DNA of 64,000 bases, from the NCBI GenBank assembly GCA_965645245.1, contig OZ287070.1, forward strand, positions 1,364,001 to 1,428,000. The letters run 5' to 3'. The notes under the pieces are model-generated. The model saw only the letters and a list, made by a program, of their open reading frames with translations, ran no database searches and was not told the DNA's origin. Of the stretch, positions 8,126 through 35,735 are shown piece by piece; within the stretch, counting starts at the first letter, position 1, and every line of letters starts with the position of its first letter. The position numbers and the translations under genes are program-made. The DNA is from Massalongia carnosa (lineage: Eukaryota).

Positions 8126-11100
8126 AGTGTTTTTGCCTTTGCAATATCCCTTTTATCGCCACCAAATAATTTATTCTGACTTTCCCCGGACGTACTAGTC
8201 AGAATAGAATTTACACCTGTTTGTTTACTGGTCAAATGACTCTTTCTTTCCTATCCCTATTTATTTGACTATAACGCGTCAAATAAATCCTAATCGGGTT
8301 AAAATAGACCGTTCCTCGCTAAGGCAGTAAGTCTTATTTAACCCTTTACCAGACACTACAATAGGTGAAAATAATGAAAGTTTTTTTTTTGCTTTTTTCA
8401 ATAAAGATAAATTTTAATGCAATGTAAGACAATAGGAGACTTCCTATTCTGATTAATCTGAAACAGGACCTTTGGTATAATCCTATTCCAGACGTTTTTC
8501 CCCTTCTTTTCAGTGATCTGTTGACCGGCCGTTCAACGAAGATCTATAAAGCCGAAAATGGAATGTGCAAAAATTATACGTGAAATATGCTATGAAAATT
8601 TGTGCTTGCGGAAGTTCCCGTAACCTTAAATGAGGAATGAACTTTAGAAGACTCTGACGTCGCGACAGTTGTTGTACAGTCCCGCGAGAGTAGATAATTT
8701 TTGTAGATAATTTTTATAGTAATAATTGAAGGTCATGCGACAACAGAACAGAAGAAAACAAGAAAAAAGAGCGATTTTTGGTGAGGTTGTTGGTATTTGT
8801 TGTTTTTTCCAACTTCTAGAGCGCGCTTTATCACGTCGGTCGCGTGCGACCAGCAGAAAAACTCTGCTGGAGCTTTGCTAGAGCTCTCCTACACTCAATC
8901 TGTGAGCGTTTTAACTCTGGAGGAGCGCAAATGACTGAGAAATAGAGGCTCAATTGACTGTTAAAGTTATAGTGTATCAAAAGTTGCGGTACTTGTGTTT
9001 CTTGTTGTTCAGGCGTGGGATGTCAATGCAACTATTGTAGTGTCTGGTAAAGGGTTAAATAAGATTTACTGCCTAAGCGAGGAACGGTCTATTTTAACCC
9101 GATTAGGATTTATTTGACGAGTTATTGTCATATAAATAGGGATAGGAAAGCAAGAGTCGTTAGACCTGTAAATTGGTGTAAATTTCTATTCTGATTAGTA
9201 CGTCCGGGGAACATCAGAATAAATTATTTGGTGGTGATAAAAGGGATATTGAAAAGGCATATCGATTTATTTATTAAATCATGTTCAATCCGGTACTCCC
9301 TAGGACTCGACGAATTATATCGAGAGCCTCCCCGGGAACACCCCTGAGCACTCCTCAAAACCCTCCCCAAATGGAATCTCCGGGGCTCTCGTCAGTAGGA
9401 CTTATAGAAAAATCTCCTGTACTTGACGAGCCTATGGATCAATCACATGAATATTCGTCCTCCCCGACTACGCCGACCCCAAAAGCAACCAATTCCCATC
9501 TGGACAATTTACTACCAATCTACCCATGCCATCGTTAAATTCTAATATAGAATTAAGCCCGCCTATCAAACGTAACAAACGAAAAACATTCGACGAACGA
9601 GTAGAGGAAAGCCAAGAAGCAATCAATCGAGCACAATCGATTGGATTACTCAAAACGGCTAAAACCGCGTTATTGAAGTCATTTGTCTTAGATCAAAATC
9701 CAGAAACAGCAATAGTCATTGATAATGTCAATTCCTTATTGACAAAAAAATCAATTAATATAAAAACAACACTAGATATGATGAATTGGAAATTGGACAA
9801 GGTAATTGATCAGACTAGTAATCGAACCTCAGAAACAACGCGAAAATCGACTCGGGTTCAACAAGTCAATACGACTGAAAATCCAAATAAAGTCGTCAAC
9901 ACGAACGCACGAAAGGAAACCGCCGGGGTTACGAGTACAAAGGTCAATAACACGCCTCCATCCTGGAGTCAAATGCTTGGAAAAGCAACTGCGAATTCCG
10001 AAAATTGGACCACTGTTTCCAGATCGAAAAATTCGAGTCAAACCTCGAACAAATTCGACAAAACCTCGAACAAATTCGACAAAACCGACGAATTAAATGC
10101 AATCAAACTCAGACGACTGATAATTACACCAAAAAGTCAAATCGGCGATATCGACTCATTGAAACTTCGAGATCAAATCAACGCGCAATTCAGCAACGCG
10201 AAGTTAGATATCGGAATCAACACGGTCGAAAAATCGGAAACCGGTCAGAATATCGTTCTCACTACTAGTTCGAAAAACACTGCTGCAGAATTGTTGGAAA
10301 ACAAGTCTATATGGGAACATATGTTCGATGCACAAAGAATTCGAAAAGACGAATCCTGGTTTAAAGTGATCGCACATGGAGTAAATATTGCAACGTTTGA
10401 TCAAAATATGCAATATTTGCAAAATGAAATCCAGAAATTCAACCTTAACATGGAATTATGCGAATTGCCCAGATGGCTAGCGCGAGACCGCGAAAATAAA
10501 GTCAATTCTTCGGTCGTTTTGACTTTTAACGATCGAAATCAGGCCTTAAACGCGTTTTTTTTTATTATTTATTCATTGAGTGTATTCAACCTAAGGTTAT
10601 GACACTCAACTATTTTAAGATATATTTCTATAATACAAATAAATGAACCCTTTATAACCCATCTATGAATCTTCAATTTTTCCCCGTTTTTACTCCGTGT
10701 TAGTAACAACCTATAGTAATCGAATTTTCGATTTTACAATTTGTCTTTGTAAAGTTCGTAAGTGTTTCAGGATAAATCAATTCTGATTTTACTGTTCGAT
10801 CTCTCCCCAACCTCCCGTTTCGAAAATTTCGTCTTCTAGCTGACCTAGTATCCATTTTCTAGTAGCGATATTGTTTTTGGCAATAAACTTTATCAAAATG
10901 TCATTTCCAATTTTGGTATTGAATAAAATGTTCAAATTGATTGTAGTATCGATACTTTGTTTCATTATTTGAATTTCTTCAAAATAGTGATTGCAGTTCA
11001 ACAATAGATGTTCTTGCGTTTGACTTTCGTTGCATCTATTCGTGCATTTTGACGAATTGTAATCTTTCAATCGATATAGATATGAACGAAAATAACCGTG

Positions 11101-12970
11101 TCCGAATTTCAGCTGCATAATGGTAGCAAATATCATTTTCGAACAATTGTTTGACAAATGATAAAAGCTCGATTTGCCAGGTTGCCTATCAAATTTCTCG
11201 TAATGTTTGCCTTTTGACCTGCATCGTTGCCATTGATTCGTCCATGTGTTTAGCGTATTTTGATGAATTTGACTTTTCAAGTAGTCAAATGTGATCGCCG
11301 AGGACTCCGCTATGATTTGACTGTGTCCTGCTTTCGCCGTTTTGTCTGCAATTTCATTTTCGATAACTTTCGAATGACTAGGAATCCATTGCAGAATTAT
11401 CTGATAGTTGTTTTCGAATAAACATTTTGCAATCTTTCGGATTTGCTTCGCATAAATATGATTTGTTAAATGTTGAATTTCGTTTATCACGTTCAAACTA
11501 TCGGAAAAAATCTAAATTGTTTTTTCTAAATTCGATAATATATTCTCGTTCGTTAACTTGTATACCCATTTGACTGCTTGTAAAATCGCATGAAGTTCAG
11601 CATTTTTAATGCTTGACTGTTTGCTCAATTTCCAGCTTTTCGAAAATGTATGATGTTGGATAAGGCAATCTTTTTCGATAAAGTGATCGAAATCATCGAT
11701 AAAATTGTTCCATTTTCGCATAATTGGTGCGAATGTGACCGCAGAAGTTGCAAATTCTACTTTTGATCCATCCGTATAAAGTAATATTCGTGATATTTCG
11801 GAATTCATAGATTGAATTTTGGACAAAGTCGAATAATAACTTGATTTTGCTGTTTCTTTTGACTTTTCGATTTGAAATTCGATTTTACACGACGACTTCC
11901 ATGGTTTTATGAAGTTATTTGATTGTTCGAATTCATCAGTTTTGTGAACTATGTCCGAAACGGAGTGCAAAACACGAATAAGCTGACTAAGATGTCGTTT
12001 ATTTGTTTGTTTTTCGTCTTCGTTCCATTCGGCATATTTCTTGTTCCATAAGCTAGTATCAAAACCGATGTTTTCAAATTTCATCGAATATGTGTTTGGA
12101 ATTCTGTGACAAATGGGATTATTTTCGGCAATCTTCAACAATCGAATAGCATATTTTTGATTTTTCATAAATAATCGTAGTTTGACTGGTAGAATATGTG
12201 ATTCAATTTCCATCGCCTGAACAGGTGTGGTTTTGAATGTTCCTAAAATCTTTCGAATAATACGATTTTGCAAATTCTGAAATAGTTTCTCATATTTCTG
12301 TTGACCATTGTACCAAATTTCTGAACCATAATCCGAAATAGGAACGATGCATGACAAATAAAGCTGTCTACATGCAGTCGGTTTAAGACCCCACTCTGAT
12401 TTCATCAAATTTTGAATCCCAAAGAATGACCGATTTGCAGAAGAAATTCGAGTTTCGACGTGTTTTTTGTAATTCAGTTTTCGATCTAGCCAGATTCCCA
12501 ACCATTTGACTACATTTTTCGGTTCCAGTATAGTTCCGTTTGGTAATTGCAGTGTGTCTTTCGATGCATTTCTTGTCTTTTCGAAGTGAATCAGTTCGGA
12601 TTTTTCGTCATCAAATTTGACATTATTCGATGCGGCCCAATCAAATGCAGTTTTTACTATGATTTCGATTTCTTTGCAATTCTGTTTTGCAGTTTTATTT
12701 TCGACATATATTGCAACATCGTCTATAAAACTAGGAGAATGTGCATTGAATTTCATTCGTACTTTCGGAAATAAGTGACGAATGTAGATCGAAAATAATA
12801 TAGGCGAAATAGGTGAGCCTTGTGGAATTCCTGATTCGACATAATAGGTTTTGCTTTTATTTTCATCGAATATTAGATTGACCGATCGTTTTGTCATAAA
12901 ATTTTTGACCCATTGAATAACTATACGAGATAATTTCAGATTTTTCATGACATTTAACAGCTGATTAATC

Positions 12971-14139
12971 TGAGGAATTGGAGTAGTATTATCAATAATT
13001 TTGATCGATTTATCGAAAAAGATTGTCTGATCAAGTATCATACGATTTCGAAAAGCTGGAAATTAAGCAAACAGTCAAGCATTAAAAATGCTGAACTGCA
13101 TGCAATTTTACAAGCAATGAAATGGGTCTATAAATTGTCTAATACTAATATTTTATCGAACTTGGAAAAAACGATTTGGATTTTTTCTGATAGTATAAAC
13201 GCGATAAACGAAATTCAGAACTTGAAAAATCATATTTTCGCAAGACAAATTCGAAAGCTCGCAAAACGCTTATTTGAAAGCAATTATCAGGTGATTTTGC
13301 AATGGGTTCCGAGTCATTCGAATATTACCGAAAACGAAATTGCAGACAAAATAGCAAAGACGGGCCATAATCAAATCCTAGTCGAGTCCTCGGCTATAAC
13401 ATTTGATTATATAAAAGATCAAATAAATCAAAATATGCTAACCACATGGACGAATCAATGGCAACAATGCAAATCAAAAGGCAAATACTACGAGAAATTC
13501 GAAATGAAACCTGGCATATCGAGATTTATTATTTATCAAACAACTGTTCCAAATTGATATTTGCTACTATTATGCAATTAAAATTCGGACACGGCTATTT
13601 TCGATCATATTTACATCGATTGAAAGATTATAATTCGTCAAAATGCTCAAATCGATGCAATCAACGACAAACGCCAGAACACTTGTTATTGAATTGCATT
13701 CACTATTTCGATGAAATTCAAAACATGAAACAAACCATCGATACTACGATCAACTTGAATATGTTGTTTAATACAAAAATCGGAAATGACATTTTGATTA
13801 AATTCATTGTCAATAACAAAATCGCGACTAGAAAATGGATACTAGGTCAGCTTGATGACGAGATTTTCGAAACTGGAGGTTGGGGAGAGATCGAACAGTA
13901 AAATCAGAAACGATTTATGCTGAAACATTCACGAACTTACAAAGACAAATTTTAAAATCGATATTCTTCGATTACTATAGGTTGTTACTAACACGGAGTA
14001 AAAATGGGGAAAAATTGACAATACATAGATGGGTTATAAAGGGTTGATTTATTTGTAATATAGAAACATATCCTAAAATAGTTTAATGTCATAACCTTAG
14101 GTTGAATACACTTAATGAATAAATAAAAAAATAAAAAAA
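12971..14139 (+). mobile_element. 5'-truncated LINE (copy I) inserted in A
   Basis: Poly(A) tail; TSD AACAGCTGATTAATC at 12956-12970 and 14140-14154. Confidence 0.93.
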
Positions 14140-14444
14140 AACAGCTGATTAATCGATACAAAGTCAAATGCGCCTTTGATGTCGAGTAATAAACATGATA
14201 AAACGTTCTTTTTTCGGTTCGCTATTTCGATATCATGAACGACGGTCATTACTGCGTCAATTGCAGAGTGATTTTTGCGTCCGCCCATCTGTTCGATGTC
14301 TAATAAATTCGAATTTTCGCCGAAGTAGGCAAGGCGATTTGCAACGATTTTCTCAGCAATTTTACCAAGACAGTTAAGTAAAGTGATAATCCGATATGAT
14401 TTTGGCAGCGAATAATCTGATTTATTAGGTTTTTTCAAAACTGC

Positions 14445-17400
14445 TTTTTTTTATTTTTTTTTATTTATTCATTAAGTGTATTCAACCTAAGGTTATGAAA
14501 CTAAACTATTTTAAGATATGGTTTTATTTTACAAATAAATCAACCCTTTATAACCCAACTATCTATCGTCAATATTGCCCCGTTTTTACTCCGTGTTAGT
14601 AACAACCTTTAGTAATCGAAATATCGATTTTAAAATTTGTTTTTGTAAAGCTCGTAAATATTCCAGCATAAATCATTTCTAATTTTACTGTTCGATCTCT
14701 CCCCAACCTCCCGTTTCGATTTTTTCTTCATCGAGCTGACCTAGCATCCATTTTCTAGTCGCGATTTTGTTATCAACAATAAATTTAATCAAAATATTAT
14801 TTCCGATCCTAGTATTAAACAACATTTTTAAAGTAATTGTGGTATCGATATTTTGTTTCATGTTTAGGATTTCATTTGAATAATGTATGCAATTCATCAA
14901 TAAGTGTTCTGGCGTTTGACGTTCGTTGCAGCGCCCTGTGCATTTTGACGAATTATAATCTTTCAATCGGTGCAGATATGATCGAAAATAACCGTGTCCG
15001 AATTTCATTTGCATAATAGTTGCAAATATTAATTTAGAACAATTATTCGACAGATAATAAAAACTCGATTTGCCCGGCTGCATTTCGAATTTCTCATAGT
15101 ATTTGCCTTTTGACTTGCATTGTTGCCATTGATTCGCCCATGTTGCTAACATATTTCGATTTATTTGACCCTTCACATAATCAAATGTTATTATCGAAGA
15201 CTCGACTAGGATTCGACTATGTCCCGCTTTTGCTGCTTTATCTGCAATTTCATTTTCGACGATTTTCGAATGACTAGGAATCCATTGTAGAACCACCTGA
15301 TAATTATTTCCGAATAAGCATTTCGAGAATTTTCGAATTTGTTTTGCGTAAGTATGTTTTGTCAAGTTCTGAATTTCGTTTATCGCGTTTATGCTATCGG
15401 AAAAAATCCAAATCGTTTTTTCCAAATTGAAGAGAATATTCGCAATTGTCAATTTGTATGCCCATTTTATTGCTTGTAGTATCGCATACAGTTCAGCGTT
15501 TTTAACGCTTGACTGTTTGTTTAATTTCCAGCTTTTCGAAATCGTATGATGTTTAAGGAGACAATCTTTTTCGATAAAACGATTGAAGTTATCGGTGAAA
15601 TTGTTCCAATTTCGCGTAATTGGTGCAAATGTGACAGCGCAAGTTGAAAACTCGGTTTTTGATCCATCGGTATAGAGTAAAATTTGCGATTTATCGGCGT
15701 TTATTGATTGAATTTTTGATAAAGTCGAATAATAACTTGACTTTGCTGTTTCTTTTGATCTTTCGATTTGGAACTTGATTTTACAAGACGGCTTCCATGG
15801 TTTGATGAAATTATTTACTGATTCGAATTCATCAGTTTTGTGAACTATATCCGAAACGGAATGAAGAATACGGATAAGCTGACTAGGATGAGGTTTACTC
15901 GATTTTTTCTCGTCTTCGTTCCATTCAGCATATCTGTTGTTCCATAAACTAGTGTTAAAACCAATGTTTTCAAATTTCACCGTATAGGTACTGGGAATTC
16001 TTTGACAAATAGGATTATTTTCGGCAATCTTCAATAATCGAATGGCGTATTTTTGATTTTTCATCAACAATCGTAGCTTGGCTGGTAAAATATGCGATTC
16101 AATTTCCATCGCCTGAACAGGCGTCGTTTTGAATGTGCCTAAAATCTTTCGAATCATTCGATTTTGCAGATTCTGAAATAGCTTTTCATATTTCTTTTGA
16201 CCGTTATACCAGATTTCTGAGCCATAGTCCGAAATAGGAATAATGCATGACAAATAGAGCTGTCTGCATGCAGTTGGCTTTAGTCCCCATTCAGACTTCA
16301 TCAAATTTTGAATTGCGAAAAACGATCGATTTGCAGAAGCAATTCGCGTTTCGACGTGTTTTTTGTAATTTAGTTTTCGGTCTAACCAGACTCCTAACCA
16401 TTTGAAAGAATTTTTCGGTTCTAGTATTGTCCCGTTTGGTAATTGCACTTTGTCTTTTGATGCATTTCTTGACTTTTCGAAGTGAATCAACTCAGATTTG
16501 TCGTCATCAAATTTGACATTATTCGTTGCGGCCCAATCAAAAGTTGTTTTGACGATAATTTCGATTTCTTTGCAATTCTGTGTAGCAGTTTTATTTTCGA
16601 CATATATTGCAACATCGTCTATAAAGCTAGGTGAATGAGCATTGAATTTCATTCGTATTTTCGGAAATAAGTAACGAATATAAATCAGAAATAGAATTGG
16701 CGAAATAGGTGAACCTTGTGGAATTCCAGATTCGATATAGTACGTTTTGCTTTTGTGTTCATCGAATATCAAATTGATCAATCGTTTTGTCATAAAATGC
16801 TTGACCCATTGAATAACTATGCGAGATAAATGCAGCTTTTTCATGACATTTTTTTTTTTTTTATTTATTCATTAAGTGTATTCAACCTAAGGTTATGACA
16901 CTAAACTATTTTAGGATATGTTTCTATATTACAAATAAATCAACCCTTTATAACCCATCTATGTATTGTCAATTTTTCCCCATTTTTACTCCGTATTAGT
17001 AACAACCTATAATAATCGAAAATTATCGATTTTACAATTTATCTTTGTAAGTTCGTAACTGTTTCAGCATAAATCGTTTCTGATTTTACTGTTCGATCTC
17101 TCCCCAACCTCCAGTTTCGAAAATATCGTCATCAAGCTGACCTAGTATCCATTTTCTAGTCGCGATTTTGTTATTGACAATGAATTTAATCAAAATGTCA
17201 TTTCCGATTTTTGTATTAAACAACATATTCAAGTTGATCGTAGTATCGATGGTTTGTTTCATGTTTTGAATTTCATCGAAATAGTGAATGCAATTCAATA
17301 ACAAGTGTTCTGGCGTTTGTCGTTGATTGCATCGATTTGAGCATTTTGACGAATTATAATCTTTCAACCGATGTAAATATGATCGAAAATAGCCGTGTCC

Positions 17401-20400
17401 GAATTTTAATTGCATAATAGTGGCAAATATCAATTTCATGACATTTAGCAATTGATTAATCGAAACAAAGTCAAATGCTCCTTTGACATCGAGTAATAGA
17501 CATGATAAAACGTTTTTGTTTCGGTTTGCGATTTCAATATCATAAACGACGTTCATTACCGCATCGATTGCAGAATGATTTTTCCGTCCGCCCATTTGTT
17601 CGGTATCTAACAAGCTCGAATTTTCGCCGAGGTAGGCTAGTCGATTAGCAACTATTTTCTCCGCAATTTTACCAAGACAATTCAGTAAGGTAATAATTCG
17701 ATATGATTTTGGCAGCGAGTAATCTGGTTTATTAGGTTTTTTTAAAACAGCTCCGATTCCTGTTCGCCAACATAACGGGTGATAACCGATTTGTATAAAT
17801 TTAGAATAAATAGTAAAAAACACGTTTTTCAATGGTTGAAACGATTTTTGAATTATTGTAAAATTGATTGCATCAGGTCCACATGATTTCTTTGGATTAA
17901 ACAAACTAATCGCATTTTGCAATTCATTTTCGGTTAAATTCGGCCAATTGTTGTCATTTTCGCTGTCTTGATTCGTTAAATCTTCAATATTATCATCCGT
18001 GAACGGGTTTTTTGTGTACATTGCTGACACAAACGCATCGCATTTGTGATCGAATTGAACATTTAACTTATTTTCATATTGAATAGGTGGTATTTTTTCG
18101 AACATGCGCGGTTTACTGTATTTATAAGCTGTAAATACGTCTTTATTCGCTGCGTTTTCGAGGAAAGCCAACCAAGTTTGCTGTTTCGCTTTTCGAATTG
18201 CATGAAAGTACTCGATTCGACTATGTCTAAATGTTTGATGACTAAAATAGGACGGATTATTCTTCCATTCTCGACGATTTCTACACATGATTTTTCGAAG
18301 TCTGGATAAATCTTGCGACCACTAATTTTTCGATTTTGCGCATATTTTTGTCTTCGGAATAAACATTTCAGCCGCGTTTTTGATAACGTTTTGCAAATAT
18401 AACGCTGATTCATCAAATTGATAATTGTTCAATAGACTTTGTATTTGGGACTCGTAGTTTATTGCATTTTCGTCTAGAAACTTCGCGAATTTATCCCAAT
18501 CGGCTATATTGCAGTTGTATTTATTCGATAATGCGGTTGCGTGTGACGTCAAGTTCTTGAAAGACGCGATAAGTTCAAATCGAATAACTTCATGATCTGA
18601 ACCCGTGACTGCGTTTTCATCGATTGGCCAATTTGTAATTGCGTTTTCGATTTTAGAATTTGCAAATGTTAAATCAATAATAGATGAAGAGTTTCCTGAA
18701 TGAGCAAAAAATGTATATAGATCAGGCGTATTTATCAAACTACATTTGTTTAATTTTAACCATTTGACTAGATTTTCTGATCGAATTGCATTTTGAATCT
18801 TCGAATTCCACCAGCTATGATGTGCATTGAAATCTCCACATATGACAAATTGATCAGTTGATATAGGTTGATATTTAACTAAAAGTCGATCGATTGTATA
18901 TGTTTCTCGATCGTTTAGACTTTTTTAATTGTAAAGGTTAAAGATCTGCACTTTTCGAACTTCATCAATTGTAATTTCGATAATTTGCAGATCAGTATCG
19001 TTTATAAGATCCGTTCTAGGCGTGCATTGTAATTTTGGATTGCATTTTGTAACGAATATAGCTACTCTCGGCCGATAAGTCGCTATTTTCGGCATAATAC
19101 ATGTGAATGACGGATGGGAAATTGTTTTTTGATCTCGCGTCCATGGTTCCTGAAATAAAACAATATCAACACGATTTAATACTGCATATTCCAGACACGA
19201 AATCAATGCATTCGTTGACTTTGCACAATTATGTTGAATAAATTTGACATTTTGTGTATTTTCGATATTTGTCAACGAATGTTGTCCCGCCATTAACCTA
19301 GCATTAATTCATCATTCGATTTTCTAGGATTTAGCGAGATAAACATTTCGCAACCTATATCGTTCGATTGATGATTTTTGTTGCAATTGACGCATTTCAG
19401 AATTGCATGTGCGCATGCGATTTTAGACTTGCATGTTGTGCATTCATGATTATGCGTTTCATGACTTTGTGCGCATATATTGCATTTTGCCGGACTTTTG
19501 CATTGATAATGCTTATGTCCAAATTTCTGACAATTAATACATTGCGTGTTTGGACGAACGGAAGCAAATATTTCCGTGTCACAATGTCTACCCGCGATAT
19601 TCACGCCTCTTAACGCGTTTGACGCTTGATTTTGATTATTGAAAGTCAAAACTACCGACGACGTGACTTTTTTGACGATCCCGAGCAAGCCATCTTGGTA
19701 AATCGCATAGTTGCATATTCGAATTGTATTTTTCGATTTCGGTTTGCAAATATTGCATGTTATTATCGAATAACGAGATATTTACTCCGTGTGCTATGAC
19801 TTTAAACCAGGATTCGTCTTTTCGAATTCTTTGTGATTCGAAAATGTGTTCCCATGAAGATTTATTTTTCAACAATTCTTCGGCATTGTTGTCAGGGCTA
19901 GTGGTGAGAACGATATTCTGACCGGTTTTGGACTTTTCAACAGTATTGACGATGATGTTTAAATTTGCGTTTTTTAATAGCGCGTTAATTTGATCACGCA
20001 GCTTCATAGAGTCGATTTGAGCGTCAGGATTTTTCGGTGAAATCACGAGTCGTCTGGCCTTGATTACATCAAATCGATCGACTTTGTTCGAATTATGATT
20101 CGAACTTTTCCTTTGAATAGTAGTCCAATTTTCGGAGTTTTCGGTTGCTTTTCCAAGCATTTGACTCCATGTACCGGTTGTGCTAACATTGTTACCAGAG
20201 ACCCCGGTGGCTCCTTTGCGAATGGTCTGATTTTCGATATTTGAATTTTCGTTCAATTTAACAACAAGTTTTTGGATTTTTGGACCATTCTGTAGTGGAG
20301 TCGTTTGTTATTGTGACGTTTTTGAGGAAAGATGACTAGTTTGATCAAGTACTATGCCCATTTTATAGTTAATCATATCTAAGGATGTTTGTAAATTGAT

Positions 20401-21161
20401 TGATTTTTTCGAAATCAACGAATTAACGTTGTCAATTACGATAGCCGTTTGTGGATTTTGGTCCAGTTCAAATGATTGCAATAATGCTTTTTTGGCCGAC
20501 TTTAGAAGCTCAATTGAATTTGCCCGATTGATCGCTTCTTGGCTATCTCTCGAATGTTCGTCAAATGTGCGTCTTTTATTTCGTTTGATTGGTGGACTTG
20601 ATCCAATGTTTAAGTTCAATGAAGGCATCGGCAAGATAATGGAAAATGGACCCGATGGGAATTTCGTTGCCTTTGGTGTCGGTGTTGACGGGGCTGATGC
20701 ATATTCGCGAGTTTGATCCATAGGTTCAAGACGGGGAGAGCTCCCTATCAACGCCACCGGAGATGGTCCGGGGGAGTGTCGGGGGGGGGCCGGGTAAGGG
20801 GTCGATAGGGGGGCGGGACCGGCTGGGGGTGGTGTCCTTGGTATATTCCGGCGGTTCATTACCGCGTTAAACATGGATTTATAAATAAATCGATGTTGCC
20901 TTTGCTATATCCCCTTTATCGCCACCAAATAATTTATTCTGACGTTCCCCGGACGTAATAGTCAGAATAGAGAGTTTTTACGCCGATTTACTGGTCTAAA
21001 GACTCTTGCTTTCCAAACCCTATTTATTTGACAATAACAAGTCAAATAAATCCTAGTCGAGTTAAAATAGACCGTTCCTCGCTTAGGCAATAGATCTTAT
21101 TTAACTCTTTACCTTGACACTACGATATATGGAATATAATAAGAATTTTACGATCGAACAG

Positions 21162-21192
<31 letters not shown>

Positions 21193-21794
21193 TTTGATCC
21201 AGAAATAAAAATCAAGTACAATGAGAGAGAGGAGACTTCCTATTTTGGTTAGCCTGAAACAGGGCCTTTTGTTTAACCCTATTTCAGACGTTTTTCCCCT
21301 TCGTTTCAGCAGATTGTTGGTCGGCAGTTCAACGAAAATCAAAAAATCCCAAAATGGAATAGTGTATACGGTACCGGTAACCTTAAATTTCAAATGAACA
21401 CCAAGAAGTTTTGTTGTCTCGAGAACAGGTTGTACAGTTACGCGACAGTGATGATATTTTGTAGATAATTTTTGTGATAATAGATGAGATCTATGCGAAA
21501 ATTAAACCGAAGAAATATCGAAAATCGAGCGATTTTTGTTGTTGTTGTTGGTGTTTTTGTGTTTTGTAGATTTTTTGGACGCGCTTTTTGGTGAAGGGGC
21601 GGACAGACTGCGAGGAAAACTCTGCAGGAGCAGTGGAAGAGCTCTCCTGTACCCAATTCTGATGGGTTTTAGCTTCTGGTAGGCTCAAATGAATGAGAAG
21701 AATGAGGAGAATAAGTTGGGAAAGTTTCAGTATATCAAAATATAGGGTACCGATGTTTTGGGGGTTGGCTTTTTGCTGATAGTCACTGAAAACG
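14445..21794 (-). mobile_element. Full-length divergent LINE subfamily copy B inserted in A; ORF1 (19293-20874) and ORF2 (14685-19293) disrupted
   Basis: Poly(T); TSD TTTTCAAAACTGC at 14432-14444 and 21795-21807; several stops and frameshifts. Confidence 0.92.
16852..17433 (-). mobile_element. ~580-bp 5'-truncated LINE (copy C) inserted in B
   Basis: TSD TTTCATGACATTT at 16839-16851 and 17434-17446. Confidence 0.92.
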
Positions 21795-21883
21795 TTTTCA
21801 AAACTGCACCGAGTCCTGTCCGCCAGCATAACGGATGATAACCGGTTTGAATGAATTTTGAATAAATCATAAAAAACACGTTT

Positions 21884-21931
21884 CAGTCTCCGACGAGAGA
21901 GTTGAGAGAGTCAGAGCCGGCTGACCGTCTG
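21884..21931. other. 48-bp foreign insertion with a 5-bp duplication CGTTT in ORF2 of A
   Basis: Other copies read aaaaacacgtttttcaacg; here cgttt[CAG...CTG]cgttt. Confidence 0.8.
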
Positions 21932-23480
21932 CGTTTTTCAACGATTGAAACGATTTTTGAACAATTGTAAAATTGATTGCATCAGGGCCACATGCTTTTT
22001 TCGGATTAAACAAACTAATCGCATTTTGCAACTCGTTTTCGGTCAAATCCGGCCAATTATTGTCATCTTCGTTGTCTTGATTCGATAAGTCTTCGACATT
22101 ATCGTCTATAAATGGGTTTTTTGTGTACATTGCTGCAACAAATGCATCGCATTTGTCATCGAATTGAACATTTAACTTATTTTCATTTTGAATTGGTGGT
22201 ATTTTTTCGAATATGCGCGGTTTAGTGTATTTATACGCTGTAAATACGTCTTTATTCGCTGCATTTTCTAGAAAAGTCAACCAAGTTTGTTGTTTTGCTT
22301 TTCGAATTGCATGAAAATATTCGATTCGGCTATGTTTAAAGGTTCTATGACCAAAATCGGAGGGATAATTCTTCCATTCTCGACGATGTCTAGACATAAT
22401 TTTTCGGAGTTCAGTTAAATCTTGCGACCACCAATTTTTTGATTTTGCACATATTTTGGTCTTCGGAATAAACATTTTAGCTGCGTCTTTAATAATATCT
22501 TGCAAATAGATCGCTGATTCGTCGAATTGATGATTATTCAATAAACTTTGAACCTGTGTTTCGTAGTTTATTGAATTTTCAACTAAAAACTTCGCGAACT
22601 TGTCCCAATCGGCTTTATTGCAATTGTATTTGTTTGATAATGCGGTTGCATGTGTCGTCAAATTCTTGAAAGATGCGATTAATTCAAATCGAATGACTTC
22701 ATGATCTGAACCTGTGACTGCGTTTTCATCGATTGACCAATTTGTTATTGCATTTTCGATTTTAGAATTTGCAAATGTTAAATCAATAACAGATGAAGAA
22801 CTTCCAGAATGGGCGTAAAATGTAAATAAATCAGACGTATTAATCAAACTACACTTTTTTGATTTTAACCATTTCACTAGATTTTCAGATTGAATTGCAT
22901 GCTGAATTTTCGAATTCCACCAGTTATGATGTGCATTGAAATCTCCACATATTACAAATTGATCATTGAATGTAGGTTGATATTTGACTATTAGTCGGTC
23001 GATTGTATATGTTTCCCGATCGTTTTGACTTTTTTCATTGTAAATGTTGATAATCTGTACTTTTCGAATATCATCAATTGTAATCTGGATAATTTGCATA
23101 TCGGGATCGTCAATAAGATCCGTTCTAGGCGTGCATTGAAGTTTCGAATTGCATTTAGTGACAAATACAGCTACTCTCGAGCGATAAGCTGCTATTTTCG
23201 GCATAATGCATGTGAATGACGGATGAGAAATAGTTTTTTGATCGCGTGTCCAAGGTTCCTGAAATAAAACAATATCAATTTGATTTAATACTGCGTATTC
23301 CAGACACGAAATCATTGCATTCGTTGACTTTGCACAATTGTGTTGAATAAATTTGAGATTTTGTGTATTTTCGATGTTTGTCAACGAATGTTGTCCTGCC
23401 ATTACAACACGGACAATTCGTCAGTCGATTTTCGAACGTTTAACGATGCAATCATTTCACATCGTTCATCATTTGACTGA

Positions 23481-25233
23481 CTAAGAATGATAAAATAGAG
23501 TTGACATCTCCTTCGTGAAGTCTCTATCCCAGTTTTCGTTCATCTCACTGGTGCGTTTTACGGCCCAAGACTATTGATGAATTCTACGATTGGGGTGAAC
23601 GACGTCCCTTTCGCCCAGGTCAAACCCAGTTTACTCCTTAAGCATATATCAAGGGCGAGTCTAGCCGTAGCCCATGCGCCGGCGAACCGACGGGGTCTCG
23701 TTACGAGCGAGATAGACATTCCCTGCTCTATATACACCGACATGCGCATACTATCCTCTCGGGCTATGCAGACGGTCTCCGTACGGTGGCCGCCATTGCA
23801 TACCACGCCTCACGGGTTTTTTACGCCCACTTCGCGTTATTCATAAAGGTCTCCCGTTTATGAACCGACCATGTCTCGCAAGGATTTCGACAGCTATGCT
23901 TCTGACCAGGCAGTATAGTATCGATTTTCCGTCCCTACTAACCAAAACAAGTCGAGGACAACTCGGAGTGGTGCTCGTTTGAAATTCGTCTATTAGCTCA
24001 GGGCCTAGACTGTTATCAATTAACGGGTTCCTCGTATATTGCCCTCTTCTTGTCCCAAGGGTGTCCTATTTGATGACTAGGTTGCCTCCACCATCCCCGG
24101 TACGACTCCGGTTCGGGCCGTGTTGCTCACGGTAGCCATCAATCGGATGGTTTTCATAACCCAAATCCCTTGTATCGTGTAGGGTGTGACCCTACACTAT
24201 GTGTCTATATGTTTTATTTCTTTCAGCCGGAGGGCTCCGTGTTGTAGACGAAGGAGACCCGTGTGATAGACATAGCTGACCCGTGTCGTACGTCTTTAGC
24301 TCTCAGCCGATTACTGCATGAAAGGACTTGAACCTTTAAGAGTATGACCGAACGTTGTTAACGAGATCTATGAAAATCTTATTAACGAGGTCTTCGAGAA
24401 CAATATTAACGATGTTCCGCTGAACTCTTTTCATTCGATTTGTGATCCATCGAGGTCTACCCGTGTCAAATCCACACCATGCCCGTGTCAAAATACATTA
24501 TTTTCAGCTGATGACTGCTAGAAAGGACTTGAACCTCTAAAAATATGTACTCCGATATTAACGGGGTGCAGATCTGTCTTAACGAGCCCCCGCAGAACCC
24601 CCTTCACAGGGACGTGTTATTGATTTGTGACTGTGTTTTTTGTGACTGTATGTTTGTGACTGTGTGATTTGTGAGTGTGTGCTTTGTACAACGTGTGATT
24701 GATGACTATGTGTTTTGTGACTTTGTTTTCCTGGATTTTATTTAACAGGCCGGGCCTATTAAATGGGATATTGTTATTCTGCTCCGAGATAGAGTTTTCT
24801 TGAGGTGACAGCATTCGCCCCGGTGCCTTTACGCGTTCTGTTGATCCCAGCTGATGACTGCATAGGGAGACTTGAACTCTCAGGAGCTAGAACGCGTGTC
24901 GACAGTGCCCGGGTGGGGGATGATGCGGCTCCTTTGGTCCACATCTTCTTCCAGCTGATGACTGCATGAAGGGACTTGAACCCTTAGAAGCATGGTGCAG
25001 GGACGCGCGCATTCTACCCCCCGGCGGTTGGCCTTCGTATCCTCTTCCGTACGTACGTCTGCGACGCGTGTGAACGCGTTAAATTAGCATTGTTTTGATG
25101 CGAAGAGATAGGAGCAAATCTATGTTTGACGGTCGCCCCACGGTGAGGCCTTTGGCGTCTCCGTGGTGAGTACCGATGGTAACTTGTTCATTTAACAATC
25201 ATGAATTGTAATGATACTGTCACGCGAATGATC
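23481..25233 (-). ncRNA. Putative retrocopied structured non-coding RNA of unknown origin
   Basis: Not homologous to the LINE, no ORF over 90 aa, many hairpins, four conserved 35-nt modules; lies inside the TSD of insertion A. Confidence 0.55.
24304..24986. repeat. Four dispersed 35-nt modules, consensus CAGCTGATGACTGCATGAAGGGACTTGAACCCTTA (24304, 24505, 24848, 24952)
   Basis: Direct sequence comparison; minus strand reads GGTTCAAGTCC (T-loop/B-box). Confidence 0.9.
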
Positions 25234-25960
25234 CCTTAAACGCGTTAAAAGGCGTAAATATCGCGGGAAAACACTGTGACACGGAAATATTTACTTCCGT
25301 TCGTCCGAATATACAATTTATTAATTGTCAAAAATTCGGACACAAGCATTATCAGTGTCGAAACAAATCAAAATGCAATATTTGTGCACAAAATCATGAA
25401 ACACGTAATCATGAATGCATAACATGCAAATCGAAAACTGCGTGTGCACACGTTGTTGTAAAATGTGCAAACTGCAATAAAAATCATCAATCAAATGATG
25501 AACATTGTGAAATGTTTACTGCATTGAATCCACGAAAATCGGCTGACGAATTATCCGCCTTATAATGGCAGGACAGCATTCGTTGGTAAATATAGAAAAT
25601 ACTCACAATGTCAAATTTATTCAACACAACTGTGGAAGGTCAACGAATGCAATGACTTCGTGTTTGGAATATGCTTTATCAAATCAAATTGATATTGTTT
25701 TATTTCAGGAACCATGGACACGAGATCAAAAAACAATATCACATCCGTCATTTACATGCATTTTGCCGAAAATAGCGACTTATCGCTCGAGAGTAGCTAT
25801 ATTTGTCACAAAATGCAATCCCAAACTGCAATGCACGCCTAGAACGGATCTTATTGACGATTCCGATATGCAAATTATTGAAATTACAATTGATGAAGTT
25901 CGCAAAGTGCAGATTTTCAATATTTATAACGAAAAAAGTCAAAATGATCGAGAAATATAC

Positions 25961-28705
25961 GGTTATCACCCGTTATGCTGGCGGACAGGACTCGGTGCAG
26001 TTCTGAAAAAACCTAATAAATCGGACTATTCGTTTCCAAAATCATATCGAATTATCACATTATTAAATTGTCTTGGTAAAATTGCTGAGAAAATCGTTGC
26101 AAATCGACTAGCCTACTTCGGCGAAAATTCGAATTTACTCGATATCGAACAGATGGGCGGACGCAAAAATCATTCTGCAATTGACGCAGTAATGAACGTT
26201 GTTCATGATATTGAAATTGCAAATAGAAATAAAAACGTCTTATCATGTTTATTACTCGATGTCAAAGGCGCATTTGACTTTGTCTCGATTAATCAACTGC
26301 TAAATGTTATGAAAAAGCTGAAATTATCTCGCATAATAATTCAATGGGTCAAGCATTTCATGACAAAGCGATCGATCAATTTGATATTTGATGAAAATTT
26401 AAGCAAAACATATTATGTCGAATCAGGAATTCCACAAGGCTCACCAATCTCGCCTATTCTATTTCTGATTTACATTCGTCACTTGTTTCCGAAAATACGA
26501 ATGAAATTCAATGCACATTCTCCCAGTTTTATTGACGATGTTGCAATATATGTCGAAAATAAAACTGCAAAACAGAATTGCAAAGAAATCGAAATCATAG
26601 TCAAAACGGCCTTTGATTGGGCCGCATCGAATAATGTCAAATTTGATGACGATAAATCCGAGCTGATTCACTTCGAAAAGACAAGAAATGTATCGAAAGA
26701 CACATTGGAATTACCAAACGGGACAGTACTAGAACCGAAAAATGTAGTCAAATGGTTGGGCGTCTGGTTAGACCGAAAACTAAATTTCAAAAAACACGTC
26801 GAAACGCGGATCTCTTCTGCGAATCGATCGTTTTTTGCAATTCAGAATTTGATGAAATCCGAATGGGGTCTGAAACCGACCGCATGCAGACAGCTCTATA
26901 TGTCATGCATTATTCCTATTTCGGACTACGGCTCAGAAATTTGGTATAATGGTCAAAAGAAATATGAAAAACTATTTCAGAACCTACAAAATCAAATGAT
27001 TCGAAAGATTTTAGGAACTTTCAAAACCACACCTATTCAGGCGATGGAAATTGAATCACATGTTTTACCAGTTAAACTTCGATTATTAATGAAAAATCAA
27101 AAATACGCAATTCGATTATTGAAGATTGCCGAAAATAACCCTATTTGTCAAAGAATTCCAAACACATATTCGATAAAATTCGAAAATATCGGTTTTGACA
27201 CAAGTTTATGGAACAACAAATATGCCGAATGGAACGAAGACGAAAAACAAACAAATAAACGACATCCTAGTCAGCTTATTCGCGTTCTTCATTCCGTTTC
27301 CGATATAGTTCACAAAACTGATGAATTTGAACAATCAAATCATTTTATTAAACCTTGGAAATCGCCTTGCAAAATCAAATTTCAAATCGAAAATACAAAG
27401 GAATCTGCTAAATCAAGTTATTATTCGACCTTATCCAAAATTAAATCAATGAACTCCGATAAATCCCGAGTTTTACTTTATACAGATGGATCGAAAATCG
27501 AATTTGCAACGTCTGCAGTCACATTTGCGCCAGTTATAAGGAACTGGAGTAATATTATCAATAATTTTAATCGATTTATCGAAAAAGATTGTCTGATCAA
27601 GTATCATACGATTTCGAAAAGCTGGAAATTAAGCAAAAAGTCAAGCATTAAAAATGCTGAACTGCATGCGATTTTACAAGCAATGAAATGGGTCTATAAA
27701 TTGTCGAATACTAATATTTTATCGAACTTAGAAAAAACGATTTGGATTTTTTCTGATAGTATAAACGCGATAAACGAAATTCAGAACTTGACAAATCATA
27801 TTTTCGCCAGACAAATTCGAAAGCTCGCAAAAATCTTATTTGAAAGCAATTTTCAGGTGATTTTGCAATGGGTTCCGAGTCATTCAAATATTACCGAAAA
27901 CGAAATTGCAGACAAAATAGCAAAGACGGGCCATAATCAAATCCTAGTCGAGTCCTCGGCGATAACATTTGATTATGTAAAAGATCAAATAAATCAAAAT
28001 ATGCTAACCACATGGACGAATCAATGGCAACAATGCAAATCAAAAGGCAAATACTACGAGAAATTCGAAATGAAACCTGGCATATCGAGATTTTATTATT
28101 TATCAAACAACTTTTCCAAATTGATATTTGCTACTATTATGCAATTAAAATTCGGACACGGCTATTTTCGATCTTATTTACAGCGATTGAAAGATTATAA
28201 TTCGTCAAAATGCACAAATCGATGCAATCAACGACAAACGCCAGAACACTTGTTATTGAATTGCATTCACTATTTCGATGAAATTCAAAACATGAAACAA
28301 AATATCGATACTACCATCAACTTGAATATGTTGTTTAATACAAAAATCGGAAATGACATTTTGATTAAATTCATTGTCAATAACAAAATCGCGACAAGAA
28401 AATGGATACTAGGTCAGCTTGATGACGAGATTTTCGAAACTGGAGGTTGGGGAGAGATCGAACAGTAAAATCATAAACGATTTATGCTGAAACATTCACG
28501 AACTTACAAAGACAAATTTTAAAATCGATATTCTTCGATTACTATAGGTTGTTACTAACACGGAGTAAAAATGGGGAAAAATTGACAATACATAGATGGG
28601 TTATAAAGGGTTGATTTATTTGTAATATAGAAACATATCCTAAAATAGTTTAGTGTCATAACCTTAGGTTGAATACACTTAATGAATAAATAAAAAAAAA
28701 AAAAA
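25961..28705 (+). mobile_element. 5'-truncated LINE (copy E) inserted in D, fused in frame to D's ORF2 start
   Basis: Poly(A); TSD GATCGAGAAATATAC at 25946-25960 and 28706-28720. Confidence 0.93.
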
Positions 28706-31731: not shown

Positions 31732-34700
31732 ATAATAGCCGGAAGAACTGTTCCGCGGGATAATATGCACTCAATAAGAGAAACCCAGTCCCTATTTCCC
31801 GGATGCACATTGAATGGTATTGTTGTTCCTTTGATTATGACCTTCGAACTGTCAGCGATGCCCATAGCAAAGCCTTTTTCATCCATGTTGTAAGTATCTT
31901 CATCTGAAATCCCATATTTGACCAAGGTGGTCGTGTACAATTCGAACCAATCACGCAAAATTTTGGGACTACCAGCGTCCTTTCTGGATTGATCGAGGTT
32001 TCTATTGTATTTGATTTTGAAATCGGGATGCCTTTTCAGGAACTTTTGATACCAATGACGACCCAACGGATTTTTGTCCCCTTTGGCGTTCAGGAGACTT
32101 CTGGCCATGCCTTCCAAATGTTGGGTACGAGGCGGCCAACCCCATGAGGTCATCCGCTCTATCCAATCAATCAGAGCCTGTTCTTCGTGGACGAATAGCC
32201 TTTGGGCGGCTTGATGATAGTGTTTTGCGGCCCGCCTGCCTTTGAGCCGGGCCTGTAAAGTCGACTGAGGAACTCCGTAAAGGCGCGCTATTTCCCGCTG
32301 CGAAATGCCCGGATTTTTGGCTAATTCTTCGATAGCCAACTGTAATCTAGTAGCAGAGTCAATTGTAGGCATATTAATGGACATTTTATCTACGATTAAT
32401 AGATAAATATATGGTGGTAGTAGATAAACAGGATAGAAATCTTTTCGGTCGCTAGATTTTAATGGGGTGACCCGAATGGGGGGCTGACCCGAATGAGGGT
32501 AAATTACGTTATTCGATAATGCGGTTGCATGTGACGTCAAATTCTTGAAAGATGCGATTAGTTCAAATCGGATGACTTCATGATCTGAACCTGTGACTGC
32601 GTTTCCATCGATTGCCCAGTTTGTAATTGCATTTTCGATTTTGGAATTTGCAAATGTTAAATCAATAACAGATGATGAACTTCCAGAATGGGCGTAGAAT
32701 GTGCATAAATCAGGTGTGTTTATCAAACTACATTTGTTTATTTTCAACCATTTGACTAAATTTTCTGATCGAATTGCGTGTTGAATTTTTGAATTCCACC
32801 AGTTATGATGTGCATTGAAATCTCCACAAATGACGAATTGATTAGTTGATGTAGGTTGATATTTGATTAAAAGTCGATCGATCGTGTATATTTCTCGATC
32901 ATTTTGACTTTTTTCGTTATAAATATTGAAAATCTGCAATTTGCGAACTTCATCAATTGTAATTTCAATAATTTGCATATCGGAATCGTCAATAAGATCC
33001 GTTCTAGGCGTGCATTGCAGTTTGGGATTGCATTTTGTGACAAATATAGCTACTCTCGAGCGATAAGTCGCTATTTTCGGCAAAATGCATGTAAATGACG
33101 GATGTGATATTGTTTTTTGATCTCGTGTCCATGGTTCCTGAAACAAAACAATATCAATTTGATTTGATAAAGCATATTCCAAACACGAAATCATTGCATT
33201 CGTTGACCTTCCACAGTTGTGTTGAATAAATTTGACATTGTGAGTATTTTCTATATTTGCCAACGAATGCTGTCCTGCCATTATAAGGCGGATAATTCGT
33301 CAGCCGATTTTCGTGGATTTAATGCAGTAAACATTTCACAATGTTCATCATTTGATTGATGATTTTTATTGCAGTTTGCACATTTCACAACAACGTGTGC
33401 ACACGCAGTTTTCGATTTGCATGTTATGCATTCATGATTACGTGTTTCATGATTTTGTGTACAAATATTGCATTTTGATTTGTTTCGACACTGATAATGC
33501 TTGTGTCCGAATTTTTGACAATTAATACATTGTGTATTCGGACGAACGGAAGTAAATATTTCCGTGTCACAGTGTTTTCCCGCGATATTTACGCCTTTTA
33601 ACGCGTTTAAGGCCTGATTTCGATCGTTAAAAGTCAAAACGACCGAAGAATTGACTTTATTTTCGCGCTCTCGCGCTAGCCATCTGGGCAAATCGCATAA
33701 TTCCATGTTAAGGTTGAATTTCTGGATTTCATTTTGCAAATATTGCATATTTTGATCAAACGTTGCAATATTTACTCCATGTGCGATCACTTTAAACCAG
33801 GATTCGTCTTTTCGAATTCTTTGTGCATCGAACATATGTTCCCATATAGACTTGTTTTCCAACAATTCTGCAGCAGTGTTTTTCGAACTAGTAGTGAGAA
33901 CGATATTCTGACCGGTTTCCGATTTTTCGACCGTGTTGATTCCGATATCTAACTTCGCGTTGCTGAATTGCGCGTTGATTTGATCTCGAAGTTTCAATGA
34001 GTCGATATCGCCGATTTGACTTTTTGGTGTAATTATCAGTCGTCTGAGTTTGATTGCATTTAATTCGTCGGTTTTGTCGAACTTGTTCGAGGTTTGACTC
34101 GAATTTTTCGATCTGGAAACAGTGGTCCAATTTTCGGAATTCGCAGTTGCTTTTCCAAGCATTTGACTCCAGGATGGAGGCGTGTTATTGACCTTTGTAC
34201 TCGTAACCCCGGCGGTTTCCTTTCGTGCGTTCGTGTTGACGACTTTATTTGGATTTTCAGTCGTATTGACTTGTTGAACCCGAGTCGATTTTCGCGTTGT
34301 TTCTGAGGGTCGATTACTAGTCTGATCAATTACCTTGTCTAATTTCCAATTCATCATATCTAGTGTTGTTTTTATATTAATTGATTTTTTTGTCAATAAG
34401 GAATTGACATTATCAATGACTATTGCTGTTTCTGGATTTTGATCTAAGACAAATGACTTCAATAACGCGGTTTTAGCCGTTTTGAGTAATCCAATCGATT
34501 GTGCTCGATTGATTGCTTCTTGGCTTTCCTCTACTCGTTCGTCGAATGTTTTTCGTTTGTTACGTTTGATAGGCGGGCTTAATTCTATATTAGAATTTAA
34601 CGATGGCATGGGTAGATTGGTAGTAAATTGTCCAGATGGGAATTGGTTGCTTTTGGGGTCGGCGTAGTCGGGGAGGACGAATATTCATGTGATTGATCCA

Positions 34701-35735
34701 TAGGCTCGTCAAGTACAGGAGATTTTTCTATAAGTCCTACTGACGAGAGCCCCGGAGATTCCATTTGGGGAGGGTTTTGAGGAGTGCTCAGGGGTGTTCC
34801 CGGGGAGGCTCTCGATATAATTCGTCGAGTCCTAGGGAGTACCGGATTGAACATGATTTAATAAATAAATCGATATGCCTTTTCAATATCCCTTTTATCA
34901 CCACCAAATAATTTATTCTGATGTTCCCCGGACGTACTAATCAGAATAGAAATTTACACCAATTTACAGGTCTAACGACTCTTGCTTTCCTATCCCTATT
35001 TATATGACAATAACTCGTCAAATAAATCCTAATCGGGTTAAAATAGACCGTTCCTCGCTTAGGCAGTAAATCTTATTTAACCCTTTACCAGACACTACAA
35101 TAGTTGAAAATAATGAAAGGTTTTTTTTTTGCTTTTTTGCGATAAAAATAGATCTAAGGCAAGGTAAGATAATAAGAGACTTCCTATTCTGATTGAAATA
35201 GGATCTTTGGTATAATCCTATTCCAGACGTTTTTCCCCTTCTTTTCATTGATCTGTTGACCGGCCGTTCAATGGAGATCGATAAAGCCTAAAATGGTATA
35301 TGCAGAAATTATACGTGAAATATACTGTGAAAATTTGTGCTTGCGGAAGTTCCCGTAACCTTAAATGAGAAATGAACTTCAAAAAAGTTGGTCGTCGCGA
35401 CAGTTGTTGTACAGTACCGCGACAGTAGATATTTTTTGTAGATAATTCTTGTAGTAATAATTGAGGGTAATGCGACAACAGAACAGAAGAAAGTGAGAAA
35501 AAAGAGCGATTTTTGGTGATATTGTTGGTATTTGTTGTTTTTATAACTTCTTGAGCGCGCTTTATCACGTCTGTCGCGTGCGACCAGCAGAAAATCTCTG
35601 CTGGAGCTTTGCTAGAGCTCTCCTACACTCAATCTGAGTCCGTTTTTGCTCTGGTGGAGCTCAAATGACTGAGAAAGAGATGTTCAATTGACTATGAAAG
35701 TTATAGAGTATCAAAAGTTGCGGTACTTGTGTTTC
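31732..35735 (-). mobile_element. LINE copy F (5'UTR, ORF1, endonuclease) ending in the 5' part of the same Fot1-like element (31732-32508); inverted duplicate of D
   Basis: Same Fot1 insertion site and same ORF1 frameshift as D. Confidence 0.9.
33281..34854 (-). pseudogene. LINE ORF1 with a 1-nt frameshift near 34640 (442 aa remain open downstream)
   Basis: Homologue reads TPKATKFPSG in one frame; here it is split between two ORFs. Confidence 0.8.

Follow-up and report, generated by a model that had tools for sequence, protein, structure and literature searches.

An ORF-less structured segment joined to the 5' end of a truncated LINE in Massalongia carnosa, and its relatives

The 64,000-nucleotide stretch of Massalongia carnosa DNA analyzed here (contig OZ287070.1 of assembly GCA_965645245.1, positions 1,364,001 to 1,428,000), referred to below as the window, is a nest of retroelements, with several copies of long interspersed nuclear elements (LINEs) encoding endonuclease, reverse transcriptase (RT) and RNase H, along with an open reading frame 1 (ORF1) carrying CCHC motifs. 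One of these copies is interrupted by a second LINE insertion, at whose 5' end lies a segment without ORFs, at 23481-25233, and it is this segment that is the subject of this analysis. The segment is probably the minus-strand complementary DNA (cDNA) of a non-coding RNA of approximately 1.75 kb, attached to the LINE through a template jump of the RT, and a LINE-dependent hitch-hiker resembling the MINE/WEIRD element of Magnaporthe.

A single insertion inside a LINE

A full-length LINE on the minus strand (ORF1 at 8125-6467, ORF2 at 6467-2799) served as a ruler, and positions preceded by q are those of the reverse complement of window 1501-9500. The insertion is bracketed by a 13-bp direct repeat, CCTTAAACGCGTT, at 10544-10556 and 25234-25246, a single target-site duplication (TSD). 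Read on the plus strand, it consists of a T7 run (the A-tail), LINE pieces that are split by nested LINEs, and the ORF-less segment. The host is a plus-strand LINE, of which q1134-2715 lies at 9029-10556 and q2703 onward resumes from 25234, the two halves being collinear and sharing exactly 13 nt, q2703-2715, which are the direct repeat. The features of the locus are as follows.

9029..10556, plus strand: host LINE, left of the insertion (q1134-2715)
10544..10556, no strand: left TSD copy, CCTTAAACGCGTT, 13 bp
10557..10563, minus strand: A7 tail that ends the inserted LINE, T7 when read on the plus strand
10557..12970, minus strand: inserted LINE, 3' part (q4866-7281)
12971..14140, plus strand: nested 5'-truncated LINE, a later arrival outside the chimera (13-nt overlap q4866-4878)
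14142..14444, minus strand: inserted LINE, middle piece (q4576-4878)
14445..21794, minus strand: nested LINE of a 77-86% subfamily, a later arrival outside the chimera, containing a 588-bp LINE fragment (13-nt overlaps q4576-4588 and q4881-4893)
21795..23480, minus strand: inserted LINE, 5' part, covering the final 78 nt of ORF1 and the beginning of ORF2, whose frame is open from an ATG at 23402 down to 21867
23481..24293, minus strand: 3' structured domain of the putative captured RNA, with the 3' end ...CATTCTTAG at 23481, a boundary common to copies in three other runs
24279..24367, minus strand: tRNA-elbow-like module 4, with a T-arm-like hairpin (loop TTCAAGT), a small CAGT/GCTG hairpin and a closing helix
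24480..24568, minus strand: tRNA-elbow-like module 3
24621..24744, minus strand: TG-rich 15/29-nt tandem repeat
24823..24911, minus strand: tRNA-elbow-like module 2
24927..25015, minus strand: tRNA-elbow-like module 1
25016..25233, minus strand: 5' leader of the putative captured RNA, its last 53 nt being 25181-25233
25234..25246, no strand: right TSD copy, 13 bp
25234..28705, plus strand: host LINE, right of the insertion (q2703-3429 and q4539-7283)
33600..33612, minus strand: target site, intact, in the LINE copy at 32886-35106 (98-99% identical), where the two flanks overlap

The target site is found in its uninterrupted state in the full-length LINE at 2799-8125(-) (alignment A1), and a second empty site is present in the LINE copy at 32886-35106(-), which matches the two host flanks at 98.3% and 98.8% identity. 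The empty state is also encountered in public sequencing data, where a contig from a run denoted X4 passes directly from 30 nt equal to window 10514-10543 into 25234-25687. Three more nested LINE-into-LINE insertions show 13-nt overlaps in host coordinates (q4866-4878, q4576-4588 and q4881-4893), and 13 bp is thus the usual duplication length of the window LINE family, which in this region lands repeatedly in its own copies. As to the host LINE itself, 472 bp of it (9029-9500) are 100% identical, in inverted orientation, to 34635-35106 in the LINE copy at 32509-35735, the remainder of the two copies being 98-99% alike; a recent duplication, gene conversion and an effect of the assembly could each account for the identical stretch.

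The inserted LINE spans q2956-7281, its truncation point at q2956 lying 78 nt ahead of the ORF1 stop, and before the nested insertions the original insert carried the final 78 nt of ORF1 and a complete ORF2. The segment is joined to it directly at 23480/23481, in the same (minus) orientation. It is single-copy within the window (blastn and nhmmer profiles), its GC content is 0.43-0.47 versus 0.31-0.35 in the LINEs, and its longest stop-to-stop frames are 113 amino acids on the plus strand and 89 on the minus strand. A first-pass annotation of this DNA had described one 13-bp TSD enclosing an A-tail, a LINE truncated at the end of ORF1 and a GC-richer, ORF-less segment, with an empty site in another copy, and each part of this description stands, the two copies of the repeat agreeing at 13 of 13 positions within a collinear host LINE.

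Copies elsewhere, the common 3' end and the predicted fold

Ten public runs from eight studies, bearing four coded organism labels and the label "lichen metagenome," hold the segment wholly or in part, six of them with at least half of its sampled words. Such labels point to a lichen-associated fungus as the probable source of the DNA. Logan contigs of four of these runs (X1, the one with most of the segment's words, X2, X4, and X7) were placed on window 22900-25800, and the best pieces only were listed. Run X1 contributes 4608 pieces over this interval, which includes approximately 1.1 kb of LINE flank (eight are listed, six of these inside the segment), X4 contributes 118, X7 five and X2 one contig, and such numbers indicate that the segment is repeated in at least two samples.

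The copies in X2, X4, and X7 all agree with the window up to exactly 23481, beyond which they pass into three different sequences. One of these, in X2, is an exact match to window 20707-20727(-), within ORF1 of the second LINE subfamily of the window, placing the breakpoint at the equivalent of 20736, at approximately codon 46 of ORF1. Another, in X7, resembles, by eye, the reverse complement of the LINE ORF2 near 26060-26085, with only 18 window-shared nucleotides located, at 26068, which would put the breakpoint in the RT region, at approximately ORF2 residue 535. The third, represented by two X4 contigs, has no position assigned on the window LINEs. A further junction is found in an X1 contig, where 23255, at approximately codon 49 of ORF2, is fused directly to 23481. 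One end, ...CATTCTTAG when read along the minus strand, is joined in these copies to at least five breakpoints, q2956 in the window among them. The first base after it is C in four of the five continuations, three of these starting with CC, so that the RNA may in fact end ...UUAGC(C). In MINE, GCC is reported directly upstream of the breakpoints (PMC2104539), a possible resemblance to the C or CC seen here. The TG-rich repeat at 24621-24744 is variable in length, with one additional 29-nt unit in the X2 copy and small indels in X1, X4, and X7.

More distant relatives are recognized through a 44-nt motif that is present in four copies in the segment. A degenerate 30-nt form of this motif occurs four times in the window, versus zero expected, and also in nine metagenome contigs (L001-L009). 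In seven of these (L001, L002, L004-L007, and L009), several blocks match the segment in collinear order, at 68-77% identity; the seven are 66-86% identical to each other across up to 1.2 kb. The remaining two, L003 and L008, have one module only in common with the segment. In the latter two (L003:1566-1654 and L008:495-583) this is a lone tRNA-elbow-like module, of the subtype that is the 5'-most in L001, L004, and L006. No 3' domain accompanies it, and the module may also exist alone or within another element.

In an alignment of the relatives in the RNA sense (A2), homology stops at a common point, ...CCCTAC(A/G)(T/G)TT..AATTCTTGGC or a variant. In all four contigs with a downstream flank this common end (...TTCTTGGC or a variant) abuts coding sequence of a LINE that has the same orientation, the point of contact differing in each of the four; L001, L004, and L007 end before or at the boundary and are uninformative in this regard. 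The LINE resumes at the FMDD motif in L005, at approximately ORF2 residue 716 in L009 and at approximately residue 723 in L002 (tblastn against the window ORF2, E from 2e-9 to 2e-19, 25-29% identity), and in L006 just ahead of two CCHC knuckles that align to ORF1 residues 470-512 (pairwise E = 0.003). Pfam recognizes no family in the short LINE pieces of L002, L005, L006, and L009, whose identity comes from these tblastn and blastp comparisons with ORF2 and ORF1 of the window. With 66-86% nucleotide identity on the one side and 25-29% protein identity on the other, the non-coding part has been conserved to a far greater degree than the LINEs to which it is joined. Across the window, the runs and the metagenome contigs, at least nine different junctions with LINEs have been observed. 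The first-pass annotation had held that recurrence of one end on different LINE truncation points would speak for a parasite, and had pointed to genomes, transcripts and related organisms as places where copies should be sought; the runs and the four informative relatives both display such recurrence, and copies now extend beyond the window to public runs and seven metagenome contigs.

The metagenome contigs terminate within 5' repeats. The 5' ends of three relatives (L002:1-100, L009:2600-2701, and L006:1500-1762) consist of approximately 30-nt tandem repeats, recalling monomeric LINE promoters, after which come a hairpin and a conserved ATATATAGAGCAG motif. Contig L001 also contains, at 1251-1865, an ORF of the fructosamine-kinase family (Pfam E = 1e-27), approximately 0.8 kb from an internally deleted copy, the only copy observed near an ordinary gene.

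For the 3' domain, aligned between window 23481-24293 and six relatives (A4), a consensus fold of 170 pairs is predicted, and the alignment has long invariant stretches. Of these pairs, 57 are changed on both sides, versus 23.9 +/- 3.4 in shuffles (none of 500 reaching 57), and 95.6% of the cells are paired, versus 89.4% in column shuffles and a maximum of 43.5% with slid partners. The 5' half of each element contains two to four tRNA-elbow-like modules, 23 instances in total, of which 22 were aligned (A3, 13 pairs), L004:734-822 being left out as it overlaps its neighbor. Their predicted consensus combines a closing helix, a T-arm-like 5-bp hairpin with an invariant 7-nt loop, TTCAAGT, and a small CAGT/GCTG hairpin; double changes are found in 53 cells, versus 19.0 in shuffles (0 of 500), and 94.8% of the cells are paired, versus a maximum of 58.5% with slid partners. 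Many invariant G.U pairs are formed on the minus strand only, being A.C mismatches on the other, and the folding-energy z score of the window copy is -2.53 on the minus strand (none of 20 shuffles as low) and -0.95 on the plus strand (3 of 20). The predicted structure and the G.U pairs thus indicate that the minus strand, which is also that of the inserted LINE, is the sense strand of the putative captured RNA. The loop and stem GGTTCAAGTCC would fit the B-box consensus. Runs of T4-T5 on the sense strand argue against synthesis of the whole RNA by Pol III.

None of the known classes that were searched for accounts for the segment. Rfam, with its models of ribozymes, RNase P/MRP, SRP, snRNAs and introns, returns a single chance-level match for the window region (SpR10, 26.3 bits versus a gathering score of 50) and a single one for the nine loci (mir-582, 27.5 versus 84), in agreement with the earlier view that no known family could be assigned. 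ARAGORN detects no tRNA genes in the window, and Rfam no tRNA match at E up to 1. A telomerase template (at least 7 nt of permutations of (CCCTAA)n) is absent from the window copy, L004, and L007, and has no common position in the others. A conserved-core pattern of 23 bases has no matches in 2.9 million viral contigs and none in a prokaryote genome set. A hammerhead, suggested by a CTGATGA on the plus strand, was rejected, as Rfam has no ribozyme match on either strand. Splicing, with the 3' end of the segment as a donor and cryptic acceptors in the LINEs, was likewise dropped, as the LINE does not carry AG just upstream of those breakpoints that could be read (...ATCA in the window, ...TCT in the X2 type). 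Neither is the segment a typical short interspersed nuclear element (SINE) of tRNA origin, as a recognizable tRNA head is absent by ARAGORN and Rfam, only the T-arm-like hairpin being present, and a fixed short LINE tail is absent too, the LINE parts differing in breakpoint and length.

Origin of the segment

We propose the following scenario for the window copy. A LINE of the Tad/I-like type would have started target-primed reverse transcription at CCTTAAACGCGTT inside another LINE, and its RT would have copied the LINE RNA from the A-tail to 78 nt short of the ORF1 stop, then switched to another RNA, starting at its 3' end and continuing to or near its 5' end, after which the entire product would have been integrated as one unit, with a single 13-bp duplication. 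The first-pass annotation had already suggested a chimera made by template switching of a LINE RT, and the constant 3' end of the segment and the variable LINE breakpoints lend support to this idea, even though the jump itself is something that we infer. The fixed end in turn implies a free RNA with that very 3' end, and the multi-copy, always-fused state of the family suggests that such an acceptor may be supplied by transcribing earlier chimeras, followed by trimming or cleavage back to the captured part. The segment would, for this to work, carry its own promoter, so that chimeras, the present one originally with a complete ORF2, could be transcribed. That this RNA is met again and again at the 5' end of LINEs truncated at many points, both in the species group and in distant fungi-like contigs, points to the behavior of a LINE-dependent hitch-hiker. 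Among the three sources considered in the first-pass annotation, a host non-coding RNA, a non-autonomous LINE parasite or a viral or satellite RNA, it is the parasite that the multi-copy, always-fused state favors, the other two being retained below as rivals.

A number of observations weigh against this explanation. Among the X1 contig pieces listed, which are the best ones, none bridges 23480/23481 or 25233/25234, and the same is true of the listed pieces as a whole for either junction of the window copy. The free RNA has not been observed, and no run listed with the segment is on record as RNA; a solo, LINE-free genomic copy is neither seen nor excluded among the short contigs. The alignments from which the folds were predicted also served for counting the pairs, which inflates the paired share and, to a lesser extent, the double-change count, and many of the aligned tRNA-elbow-like modules are paralogues within one element. 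Finally, the 5' end is not uniform. The first-pass annotation took GATCATTCGCG for the 5' end of the RNA; the X2 contig follows the window copy to 25232, but the X4 and X7 copies leave it at 25180, passing into tandem units of approximately 20 nt, and as a universal 5' end this sequence has to be abandoned. The notion of a full-length copy of one RNA fits only loosely. The 53-nt terminus, 25181-25233, has no match longer than 15 nt elsewhere in the window, and could represent a third captured piece or a variant leader. Part of this terminus, from 25197, occurs after unrelated sequence in X1 and X4 contigs.

As to the alternative explanations, the one that survives best, though we find it unlikely, is that of an ordinary non-coding RNA gene of the host, present at one or a few solo loci and serving the cell, whose abundant transcript is often captured, as U6 snRNA is by the mammalian L1. 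Strong purifying selection on both sequence and fold, evident in the long invariant blocks and the 57 covarying pairs, speaks for such a gene, as does the persistence of this RNA while its partner LINEs diverged to 25-29% protein identity, and one copy, in L001, lies close to a fructosamine-kinase-like gene; the same proposal was made for WEIRD by its authors (PMC2104539). However, all four of the informative metagenome copies and every run junction seen are LINE fusions, the contig pieces of X1 are in the thousands (4608, LINE flanks included), the number of tRNA-elbow-like modules (two to four) and the 5' repeats vary among copies, which is unusual for a housekeeping RNA, and neither an Rfam family nor a telomerase template is found.

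We consider it quite improbable that the segment is the native 5' untranslated region or promoter of some LINE lineage, the chimeras then being mosaics between LINE RNAs. The 5' tandem repeats of approximately 20-30 nt do resemble monomeric LINE promoters, and the segment is always upstream of a LINE, in the same orientation. Its 3' boundary is, however, constant, whereas the point at which the LINE begins ranges from approximately codon 46 of ORF1 to midway through the RT domain. None of the junctions seen includes an intact start of ORF1, and the window's two full-length LINE 5' regions, at 8126-9000 and 20875-21758, are dissimilar to the segment.

Even less credit can be given to an RNA-only replicon, satellite or viroid-like, without a DNA gene, of which the genomes would show accidental cDNAs made by LINE RTs. 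It would agree with the large fold, the lack of an ORF and the lack of solo DNA copies, both among those seen here and for WEIRD in Magnaporthe (PMC2104539). Against it stands the lack of ribozyme or other Rfam matches on either strand and of the conserved-core pattern in the viral contigs, and the fixed tRNA-like modules and the 5' tandem repeats look like promoter or ribonucleoprotein features of a nuclear transcript; transcribed chimeras would, moreover, be enough to supply the RNA.

A 5' transduction, that is, read-through from upstream sequence into a 5'-truncated source LINE, is permitted by the anatomy of the window copy alone, but is hardly conceivable in view of at least eight other junctions with the same end at other LINE positions and in other lineages, unless these were assembly artefacts. 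Independent insertion of the segment as DNA was rejected, the variable LINE breakpoints and the single duplication excluding it along with transduction.

Going back to the hitch-hiker explanation, it is possible, and we put this forward only tentatively, that the family represents a new class of retro-hitch-hikers, a large self-folding RNA with a covarying core of approximately 0.8 kb and two to four tRNA-elbow mimics, geneless and spreading solely as a landing site for RT jumps. Transcripts of old chimeras would in such a case be cut or trimmed to the fixed 3' end (...UUAG or ...UUGGC) by the fold or a bound protein, and the acceptor RNA so regenerated would provide each new copy with a new LINE breakpoint. 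If true, the family would be widespread in ascomycete-like fungi, with very different LINE partners, and it may include the WEIRD of Magnaporthe.

The window contains other mobile elements, away from the chimera. In its GC-richer right half there are two apparently intact chromodomain Gypsy elements, each with a gag-like ORF and pol (1262 and 1460 amino acids), and an ORF for a Tc1/mariner-type transposase (436 amino acids), at 44545-49706, 55127-60951, and 61337-62647. At the opposite end, in 1580-2855, the last approximately 640 nt of the LINE (q6646-7281) are present in tandem (1580-2215 and 2220-2855, 84.5% alike), which looks like a 5'-truncated copy inserted at the 3' end of another copy.

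Comparison with known systems

Several known types of composite elements bear comparison with the one described here. One example is the tRNA-derived SINEs with a conserved core (CORE-SINE and V-SINE), which combine tRNA-like 5' elements, a conserved center and a LINE-derived 3' tail that recruits the LINE machinery. The three-part logic is similar, but the window element is three to ten times longer and has no detected tRNA, and where the LINE tail of a SINE is fixed and short, here each copy acquires a LINE stretch of its own, variable and up to several kb long. Another example is SVA and similar composite non-coding elements that are moved in trans by L1. These are alike in being composite, non-coding and mobilized in trans by a LINE, and differ in their fixed make-up; SVA uses its own poly(A) and is not known to be rebuilt by a fresh template jump for each copy.

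A third example, closer in terms of mechanism, is the chimeras of U6 snRNA with L1 and other bipartite and tripartite chimeras of mammals, described as resulting from a jump of the RT to the 3' end of a second RNA, with one duplication flanking the product (PMC2104539). The 5' part that is an RNA, the 3' part that is a truncated LINE and the single flanking duplication are all common to U6-L1 and the window element. In U6-L1, however, what is captured is a small, known housekeeping RNA that has genes of its own, whereas here a large RNA is seen solely as fusions.

The closest parallel is MINE, a fusion of WEIRD and the LINE MGL in Magnaporthe grisea/oryzae, with flanking repeats of 10-20 bp, 28 breakpoints and no solo copy of WEIRD reported (PMC2104539). 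The same source recognizes LINE-made chimeras by an A-rich, 5'-truncated LINE, the same orientation of the parts, one short repeat, variable breakpoints and a full-length 5' RNA (PMC2104539), and four of these five features are found here, as in a LINE-made chimeric retroelement of the MINE type. Both systems present a non-coding RNA of at least approximately 1 kb joined in the same orientation to 5'-truncated LINEs at many breakpoints, with a constant 3' boundary. They differ in size, the window copy being 1.75 kb and WEIRD 1.1 kb. They also differ in breadth, as WEIRD was reported to lack similar sequences in other genomes, whereas the present family spans a species group and distant metagenome contigs, and in the conserved structure and the tRNA-elbow-like modules, which are not described for WEIRD (PMC2104539). 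Two published 20-nt WEIRD primers have no match at up to five mismatches, a weak test of homology, and full-text literature searches, judged for most hits from the listing, yielded no description of WEIRD-like RNAs outside Magnaporthe.

Overall, the mechanism of template switching is known, and it is the RNA family and its breadth that appear to be undescribed. New with respect to the literature searched are a family that is spread across separate metagenome contigs and distinct LINE lineages, a covarying fold, and the tRNA-elbow-like modules. MINE has been the one prominent fungal case, with the nature of WEIRD left open since 2005-2007, and the comparison made here makes what could pass for odd junk in front of a LINE a defined RNA family, whose 3'-end formation, promoter and interaction with the LINE RT become testable. 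Such a family provides a concrete model for the origin of new non-autonomous elements and of new LINE 5' ends.

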